A stretch of 29,523 bases of DNA. It comes from a virus. Position numbers and translations under genes: made by a program. The stretch lies in the UHGV virus genome UHGV-1542943; one strand, 5' to 3'. How positions within the stretch are numbered: the first letter of the stretch is position 1; each line of letters begins with the position of its first letter. Of the stretch, positions 9,802 through 10,282 are shown one piece after another. Under the pieces are notes generated by a model. It did no database searches. It was not told the DNA's origin and was given only the letters and a program-made list of their open reading frames with translations.

Positions 9802-10202
9802 CCACTTTAACCGACAAAGAACTGATTAAAGAAATCAGAGAGCGTATAGGCAGCCTGGACGTCCGAGACAATATTGAGCGTCGGGCTTATGAAATTGCTC
9901 TGGCATCGCTGGAAGCAGAAGCGCCAAATTTGCCTGGTGGTTTCACAATTGAAGAAGCAAAAGAATTACACGAAAATCTGGTAAAAAGTCACGTAAGCAA
10001 GGCTTTAAGTGGCGAAAAAATGAAAAAAGAAAATCGTGATGCCGATTTGCGCTGGATTCATGGCGTAATAGTTCAGGCTGCGTGGTTTGTGAAAGCATCA
10101 CTGGAGCAGAATGCACTATCGGGCAACTCTCCGGTAACTCCGGATGGTTGGATAAGCTGTAGTGAGCGAATGCCGGACGACAGGCAGGAGGTGAATCAAT
10201 GA
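9798..10202 (+). CDS. Hypothetical protein with a DUF551-like C-terminal motif
   Basis: IALASLEAEAP motif N-terminally; C-terminal ..PDGWISCSERMPDD resembles the DUF551 start (WISV.DRLPE), recalled from memory, but the ORF stops right after it. Confidence 0.45.
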   Translation: MTTLTDKELIKEIRERIGSLDVRDNIERRAYEIALASLEAEAPNLPGGFTIEEAKELHENLVKSHVSKALSGEKMKKENRDADLRWIHGVIVQAAWFVKASLEQNALSGNSPVTPDGWISCSERMPDDRQEVNQ

Positions 10203-10282
10203 GCTGGCCTGATGCAATCGTAACTCTGGGGGTGGTCTTCGCAGCAGCGTTTGTTGTGTTCTCGATTTGTCGATGGGGATAA
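10199..10282 (+). CDS. 27-aa hydrophobic membrane peptide
   Basis: MSWPDAIVTLGVVFAAAFVVFSICRWG; strong GGAGGTG RBS 6 nt upstream; ATG overlaps the preceding TGA. Below the ORF-track cutoff; translated by hand. Confidence 0.45.
   Translation: MSWPDAIVTLGVVFAAAFVVFSICRWG

Follow-up and report, generated by a model that had tools for sequence, protein, structure and literature searches.

Enterobacteria encode several small single-pass inner-membrane regulators, among them AcrZ, MgtS, CydX, KdpF and the 27-amino-acid (aa) YohP, and these proteins work by binding larger membrane proteins (PMC12648545). Among phages, Iap of Pseudomonas phage D3 is a small peptide inhibitor of the alpha-polymerase, with an analogue in Salmonella phage epsilon15 (PMC4815439, PMC12373910), and Gp11 of Staphylococcus phage PhiNM1 is an early small membrane protein that binds MurG and DivIC and blocks division (PMC11237401). 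Here, we examined a 27-codon open reading frame (ORF) at positions 10199 to 10282 of the UHGV virus genome UHGV-1542943, a stretch of 29,523 nucleotides (nt) that is called the window throughout. Our results indicate that the ORF is very probably a real gene for a membrane micro-protein, and we give a probability of roughly 60% to the overall best reading, in which such a gene is combined with a partner-binding mode of action. The specific mode, that of a modulator that binds a membrane protein and is made together with Ea22-like early proteins, is tentative and stands clearly below even odds. Judged from its sequence, the putative micro-protein is a new, uncharacterised family among the phage-encoded small membrane proteins.

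The ORF, its translation signals and its two flanking genes are placed as follows:

9798..10202, + strand: upstream Ea22/ead-like gene of 134 aa with a truncated DUF551 domain (Pfam DUF551; PHROG 60/5117/660)
10186..10192, + strand: Shine-Dalgarno sequence AGGAGGT, 6 nt before the ATG at 10199
10199..10202, + strand: ATGA start/stop overlap (ATG at 10199-10201, upstream TGA at 10200-10202), a translational-coupling junction
10199..10282, + strand: 27-codon gene for the putative membrane micro-protein MSWPDAIVTLGVVFAAAFVVFSICRWG, TAA stop included
10287..10529, + strand: downstream DUF4222 gene (Pfam DUF4222, E=3e-15), which begins 4 nt past the peptide stop

The window sequence around the ORF (10140-10300) is acaggcAGGAGGTgaatcaATGAgctgg. 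An earlier note on this DNA had described a 27-residue hydrophobic peptide with a single membrane pass, a strong Shine-Dalgarno at good spacing and an ATG overlapping the upstream stop, and the sequence bears out all three descriptions. Residues 6-24 of the translation are strongly hydrophobic (mean Kyte-Doolittle value of 2.63), AGGAGGT is a perfect 7-nt match to the anti-Shine-Dalgarno (10187-10193 in the register GGAGGTG) that lies embedded in the final Q-E-V codons of the upstream gene, and the ATGA overlap is the very end of that gene. Because there are in-frame stops at 10160-10165 and no start codon between them and the ATG, 27 aa is the sole possible product in the window. The only charged residues of the peptide are D5 and R25. 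Tryptophan is found at positions 3 and 26, a spacing of 23 residues that corresponds to about one bilayer for a helix, and the ends of the peptide are conserved as WP[DE]A at the N terminus and [YF]S[IL]CRW at the C terminus. A bacterial lipoprotein or signal peptide was considered and rejected: the N terminus is acidic (D/E5) without a basic n-region, F/Y-S-I precedes Cys24 in place of the lipobox L-[AS]-[GA]-C, and cleavage there would leave only 3 residues.

Like the enterobacterial regulators, the peptide is shorter than 50 aa, has one hydrophobic helix with short termini, has been missed by annotation and keeps a conserved coding frame, and its length, its one predicted transmembrane (TM) helix and its maintenance as coding sequence place it among the small inner-membrane proteins. 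It differs from these regulators in showing no sequence similarity to them, in being phage-borne and in being coupled to an early phage gene. Iap, which is about 31 aa long, is likewise a very small hydrophobic phage peptide and acts on a polytopic host inner-membrane enzyme complex, and the epsilon15 inhibitor comes from a phage of the same phiV10/epsilon15-like kind as that of the window. Compared by context, however, Iap lies in a serotype-conversion unit together with a beta-polymerase, whereas this ORF follows Ea22-like genes, and the Shiga toxin (Stx) phages, P1-like plasmids and virulent myovirus that also carry it are without such a unit. No wzy-beta or O-antigen-modifying unit flanks the ORF in any context class, the neighbours being Ea22-like genes together with DUF4222 or hok/sok. 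The mechanism of PhiNM1 Gp11 is, by analogy, of the kind that we propose for the peptide, but host and phage are others and the likeness would be one of function.

The coding status of the ORF rests on a homologous set of 266 loci, with 86 distinct 84-nt DNA versions and about 50 distinct peptides. A first scan of public collections was anchored only on the Shine-Dalgarno and codons 1-6, and all on-target loci had a 27-codon ORF ending in xRW[GRW] with three exceptions, namely a locus with an in-frame deletion of 4 codons, one with a premature stop and one cut off at a contig end; the off-target matches in unrelated taxa had ORFs of arbitrary length. A second scan, with a protein-motif pattern that fixed positions 3-6 and 22-26, was run on viral and metagenome collections and added many loci; as DNA, the protein-motif pattern has one match in the window, with none expected from 100 shuffles. 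Translation of the equivalent gap in four other records (933W, BP-4795, a P1-like phage and an E. coli prophage) always yielded an ORF of 27 codons whose ends are conserved and whose hydrophobic core varies, and none of these records annotates it. The earlier note had held that lack of frame conservation in homologous regions would speak against the ORF, and we find the frame kept across hundreds of loci.

Selection on the peptide is seen in several measures. The pairwise ratio of nonsynonymous to synonymous differences (pN/pS) is 0.39 in the ORF frame compared to 0.84 and 1.9 in the other two frames, and the entropy of third codon positions (0.82) exceeds that of first (0.47) and second (0.28) positions. 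A tree test with neighbour-joining and parsimony was restricted to codons 7-21, which are free of both search patterns, and it counted 60 synonymous and 77 nonsynonymous events, corresponding to a nonsynonymous-to-synonymous rate ratio (omega) of about 0.52. Synonymous events were in significant excess (p=1.4e-4), omega was low in the ORF frame only, and the changes at codon positions 1, 2 and 3 numbered 41, 31 and 77, respectively. Stop-creating events were absent from the ORF frame, whereas frame +1 had 33. Nearly every replacement exchanges one hydrophobic or small residue for another (A, V, I, L, M, F and T), and indels in the ORF are always in frame. A divergent copy in Av-05, a virulent 121-kb myovirus, retains the peptide MTWPEAFTTVGVVMAVAFAVYSVCRWG despite many synonymous differences. 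On these sequence comparisons, we conclude with high confidence that the ORF codes for protein and that purifying selection acts on the peptide. Two other uses of the same DNA were considered and rejected. An RNA element is not favoured by folding, which was worse than that of shuffled sequences (z=+1.9), and no Rfam family and no tRNA overlaps the ORF; an antisense ORF (10116..10367, - strand) is interrupted by stops in 59 of the 86 variants.

Within the peptide core, the conserved small residues G11, A13, A15 and A17 alternate with variable bulky ones, a modest period-2 pattern that has a p value of about 0.02 after correction for the angle scan. The small-xxx-small pairs 11/15 and 13/17 fall on two sides of the helix, which by sequence is compatible with packing against a partner helix or with self-association. 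The same core carries a (NTGGCG)n repeat encoding A-M/A-V/A-L, slippage of which leads to longer helices in the form of in-frame variants of 29, 31 and 35 aa (homologues P0083, P0093, P0095, P0098 and P0099).

Several points weigh against a selected, partner-binding peptide. The period-2 pattern coincides with this cryptic hexanucleotide repeat and may in part reflect DNA history rather than function, and conservation on one face of the helix was not found (moment at 100 degrees, p=0.52), leaving a classical one-sided packing interface unsupported. The invariance at positions 3-6 and 22-26 is imposed by the second search pattern, and independent support for it comes only from the other scans. 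An omega of about 0.5 signifies moderate constraint only, and the tree disregards recombination while the loci do recombine and the host range is narrow, so that the event counts are approximate. Finally, a ribosome profiling (Ribo-seq) survey of the enterohemorrhagic E. coli (EHEC) strain Sakai scored only ORFs of at least 30 aa, above the length of the peptide, and the ORF sequence does not occur in its supplements.

The junction with the upstream gene is conserved across the loci. An NTGA start/stop overlap is present in 265 of the 265 loci with enough flank and the Shine-Dalgarno core in 105 of 107 distinct upstream contexts, while the start codon is ATG in 103 cases and GTG in 4. Residue 2 is limited to T, S, N or I, the codons of which all start with A, so that the upstream TGA is preserved. 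Across the loci the upstream gene is always an Ea22/ead-like mosaic with the coiled-coil motif IALASLEAEP, and its C-terminal domain differs. In the window, residues 117-132 of the upstream protein match positions 1-16 of the 68-position DUF551 model (WISCSERMPD...), and this truncated domain is joined directly to a ...DRQEVNQ tail; since 44 or more independent loci carry the truncated allele, an assembly error can be dismissed and the variant is a stable one. The following C-terminal types were found upstream of the peptide:

full DUF551, ending ...HWMPLPEPPQEVNQ
the truncated DUF551 of the window, ending ...ERMPDDRQEVNQ
an unrelated domain, ending ...LPDKAMDYLKRNGLISVEDILR
a further ending, ...PWERGGHEEGDK
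the 933W protein L0139, ending ...NIEQKVNQ

At least four unrelated DNA contexts or upstream gene ends precede the start codon, and the Q-E/K-V-N-Q tail that bears the Shine-Dalgarno moves with the peptide and not with the upstream domain. The main recombination joint is the Shine-Dalgarno/NTGA boundary, at which upstream modules are freely exchanged. From these alignments, the Shine-Dalgarno-bearing tail and the ORF behave as a portable cassette that is joined to the 3' end of the last Ea22/ead-like early gene.

Downstream, the type of peptide sequence tracks the module that follows. The window-type peptide (AIVTLG...) is always followed after a 4-nt gap by DUF4222, whose Shine-Dalgarno-like GGGGA (10275-10279) sits inside the last two codons of the peptide (26-27), and in the window no terminator separates the two genes. 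In the commonest type (TTVGIAMAVAL...), an intrinsic terminator begins 8 nt past the stop and an independent hok/sok module comes next; in the P1-plasmid type (...RWW), the next gene encodes 80 aa and overlaps the peptide gene. In locus L006, the terminator after the peptide gene reads AAAAACCCCGGA-ttgatgg-TCCGGGGTTTTT. The peptide gene is the last cistron in the commonest context and is therefore not purely a leader or coupling bridge for a downstream gene, and the RWG end is conserved there as well, where no downstream Shine-Dalgarno needs to be supplied. A role as a leader peptide or attenuator was rejected, as only the autonomous hok/sok lies behind the terminator, with nothing to be regulated, and the peptide sequence is under selection. 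The arrangement of terminator and hok/sok was seen at 4350-4380 and 4660-4872 in L006, at 1391-1665 in L001 (933W) and at 1739-1951 in L311, and a Hok-like ORF lies at most 900 nt downstream in about 95 loci.

In the mechanism that we propose, the peptide would be translated by termination-reinitiation coupling at the conserved NTGA overlap and hence would be made whenever the Ea22-like early operon is expressed. It would then insert so as to span the cytoplasmic membrane, Trp3 lying at one interface and Trp26 at the other, the acidic N terminus probably being periplasmic and Arg25 cytoplasmic (N-out, C-in), as expected from the positive-inside rule. The conserved ends and the small-residue core (G11/A13/A15/A17) suggest packing against partner TM helices, and the peptide may find this partner in a host inner-membrane protein or in other copies of itself. 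Such binding may modulate a membrane function in early phage development. Insertion, topology, partner binding and any phenotype are predictions made from the sequence. The earlier note had suggested host killing, inhibition of division or regulation of membrane proteins; for this peptide these would be generic possibilities, and the searches returned no homologue whose function is known.

Apart from a partner-binding modulator, the peptide might be a membrane-damaging toxin that works in the manner of type I toxins or of a minimal holin. Its oligomers would depolarise or permeabilise the inner membrane and thereby shut off or kill the host while the early operon is on. We consider this rather unlikely. 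The peptide does resemble the type I toxins (Hok/Gef, TisB, DinQ, Ibs and Ldr) in its size and composition, with 27 aa, one hydrophobic TM helix and a short basic C-terminal end, and in its expected inner-membrane destination; hok/sok is often adjacent, and the small residues on two sides of the helix (11/15 and 13/17) could allow self-association. However, it matches neither Hok/Gef nor any other toxin family, there is no antisense RNA and no promoter-like site on either strand in 10100-10400, and the mRNA region has no stable fold (z=+1.9). Its strong Shine-Dalgarno and coupling to an ordinary early gene of the operon stand in contrast to the translational silencing of type I toxins, and its TM core has none of the polar or charged residues that are typical of pore-forming toxins. 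Its location is likewise not that of a toxin or holin, being outside the lysis cassette, with Ea22-like genes, DUF4222, phrog_536 and terminase as neighbours in the window and xis/int or hok/sok elsewhere, and the linked Ea22-like genes are described in the literature as pro-lysogenic.

It is also conceivable that only the act of translation matters, through ribosome occupancy of the operon's 3' end, prevention of Rho-dependent polarity, delivery of ribosomes to the DUF4222 start or control of the terminator, and that the peptide itself is inert. The NTGA overlap upstream, the 4-nt gap in the window with the DUF4222 Shine-Dalgarno in codons 26-27 and the terminator 8 nt past the stop in the commonest context are all in line with this. 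Purifying selection on amino acids with conservative replacements is not, nor is the length held at 27 codons, and the terminal motifs are kept across wholly different downstream DNA, even directly before a terminator, making an inert peptide very unlikely.

A non-coding linker or boundary that promotes homologous recombination between phage modules, with an incidental open frame, would agree with distant DNA matches that start at the Shine-Dalgarno and in some cases end exactly at the stop, with the free swapping of upstream modules at the junction and with the presence of another repeated 24-nt gene-start junction in the window. We regard it as highly improbable, since a linker is expected to be evenly conserved across codon positions, while the ORF has a third-position excess and a frame-specific omega, no stop-creating events in one frame only, in-frame indels and a preserved start codon. 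We find it barely credible that a programmed frameshift at the overlap gives some of the Ea22-like protein a C-terminal membrane anchor. In favour of this, the ORF lies in the -1 frame directly at the end of an Ea22-like gene in all cases, and a strong internal Shine-Dalgarno just before the stop is a feature known to stimulate frameshifting in prfB; but no slippery heptamer is common to the four different upstream contexts, the start codon is conserved at every locus and no fused protein is found among called proteins, the 121- and 185-aa mates being separate upstream genes.

The cassette is widespread within a narrow range of hosts. A query of 181 nt around the ORF matched 1,117 of 5,426 complete E. 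coli genomes (about a fifth) and 79 phage records. In distant relatives (72-76% identity) the match starts at window position 10184, at the Shine-Dalgarno, and in 933W-type phages it stops at 10282, so that exactly the Shine-Dalgarno and the ORF are covered. The carriers are Stx and other lambdoid phages, phiV10-like podoviruses, 168 mostly P1-like plasmid records and one Vequintavirinae phage, and by these matches the family is restricted to phages, prophages and phage-plasmids of Escherichia, Shigella and Salmonella. E. coli K-12 was searched for a counterpart, and in its CPS-53 prophage the DUF551 gene yfdS is directly followed by yfdT, with no peptide-like ORF between them; because K-12 is without the cassette, K-12 small-protein datasets are uninformative. 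In one record, L311 (PP818812.1, 'Actinobacillus phage vB_Apl-pPE4' of Actinobacillus pleuropneumoniae), an E. coli-type arrangement of Ea22-like gene, peptide and Hok is seen, which points either to an unusual host range or to a host assignment that is worth checking.

Annotation of the peptide is sparse and partly misleading. The earlier note had called the ORF unannotated, which holds for most homologous public records, although a few GenBank genomes do call it, as 'putative prophage protein' (E. coli 042), 'bacteriophage protein' or 'hypothetical protein', and other records make it 45 aa long by starting too early, at an upstream ATG overlapping the DUF551 gene. Pipelines with cut-offs of about 30 aa skip it. 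In Pfam, NCBIfam and PHROG, the peptide has no family match at E<=1, and an exhaustive phmmer search of 1.84 billion representatives returned 7 close relatives only and no characterised homologue. NCBI mislabels peptide fragments of 25-31 aa as 'DUF551 domain-containing protein, partial' (P0012, P0018, P0060, P0064-P0066 and others), and clusters at 90% identity lump the peptide with DUF551 proteins of 121 and 185 aa, which is a clustering artefact. A fusion to DUF551 proteins was rejected, as these cluster mates end in ...PEPPQEVNQ, without the peptide, and no in-frame fusion is found among 59 word-index matches or the 7 phmmer matches, except for rare read-through or frameshift calls. The mislabels and mixed clusters could mislead automated analyses. 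In the literature, catalogues of the exo-xis/Ea22 region list Ea22 variants V1-V3 for phages that carry the ORF, including 933W, VT2-Sakai, Min27 and the PA series, and these reviews and structural papers mention neither the ORF nor any membrane peptide (PMC8614690, PMC10834534). The peptide strings are also absent from a broad full-text literature search.

The window itself is a temperate podovirus prophage of the phiV10/epsilon15-like type, with terminase and head genes that are about 96% identical to those of phiV10, TL-2011b and relatives. Its remaining features around the early and packaging regions are:

246-1496: integrase
Leftward block: MT-A70 methylase, RecT and PDDEXK exonuclease, then a helix-turn-helix (HTH) repressor at 5381-5965
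6717-7532, rightward: DnaT/HTH replication protein
7514-8314, rightward: lambda-P-like replication protein
8511-8984: Ea22-like gene of the accessory block
8986-9249: phrog_1714
9286-9801: phrog_9263
10565-10903: phrog_536, 'transcriptional regulator'
10944-13090: terminase small and large subunits

The earlier note had placed the ORF in a nin-like block, and this is right as to position, between replication gene P and the terminase, but not as to gene content, which is Ea22/ead-like, DUF551 and DUF4222; the block is of the Ea22/exo-xis type rather than nin. The homologous counterpart of the block in lambdoid and Stx phages forms the exo-xis/ea22 end of the early-left operon, adjoining xis and int. 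The two Ea22/ead-like paralogues of the block (8511-8984 and 9798-10202) share a 27-nt stretch encoding IALASLEAE (8681-8707 and 9893-9919, 93% identical). A 24-nt direct repeat, CATGGGAAAGGAGAGTGATATGGC, is found at 8967-8990 and 9267-9290 with 96% identity, and its copies open two consecutive, otherwise unrelated genes that both apparently begin with MGKESDMA; the repeat resembles a translation-initiation or module-junction sequence common to both genes, akin to the Shine-Dalgarno/NTGA joint. A terminator-like hairpin at 10953-10970 (GCCGCCAACTATGGCGGC followed by TTTATTTT) lies just inside the longest ORF for the terminase small subunit (10944..11618), the true start of which is probably downstream of the hairpin, and the hairpin may be a terminator that separates the early block from the packaging genes. 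A tRNA-Arg gene (anticodon TCT) is located within the structural genes at 14128-14204 on the - strand and is annotated likewise in related phiV10-like phages.

The exo-xis/Ea22 region of Stx phages attracts active research as a point at which lysogeny and toxin-prophage induction are controlled, and the ORF has been overlooked there. Since the peptide gene is coupled to the gene upstream, manipulation of 'ea22' may alter expression of the peptide, and published ea22 deletions or clones in Stx phages may unknowingly have removed or included it. Its presence in carriers as different as temperate lambdoid phages, a virulent myovirus, P1-like plasmids and phiV10-like podoviruses speaks for a portable function that serves very unlike phages. 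A more far-reaching version, which we think doubtful, is that the peptide is an overlooked effector of the Ea22/exo-xis region that is directed at the host, hits a conserved inner-membrane machine (for example, that of division or envelope synthesis, FtsH/HflKC or a transporter) and adds to the phenotypes attributed to ea22. If this were true, the peptide would contribute to the lysis-lysogeny and host-physiology phenotypes that are now credited to ea22.

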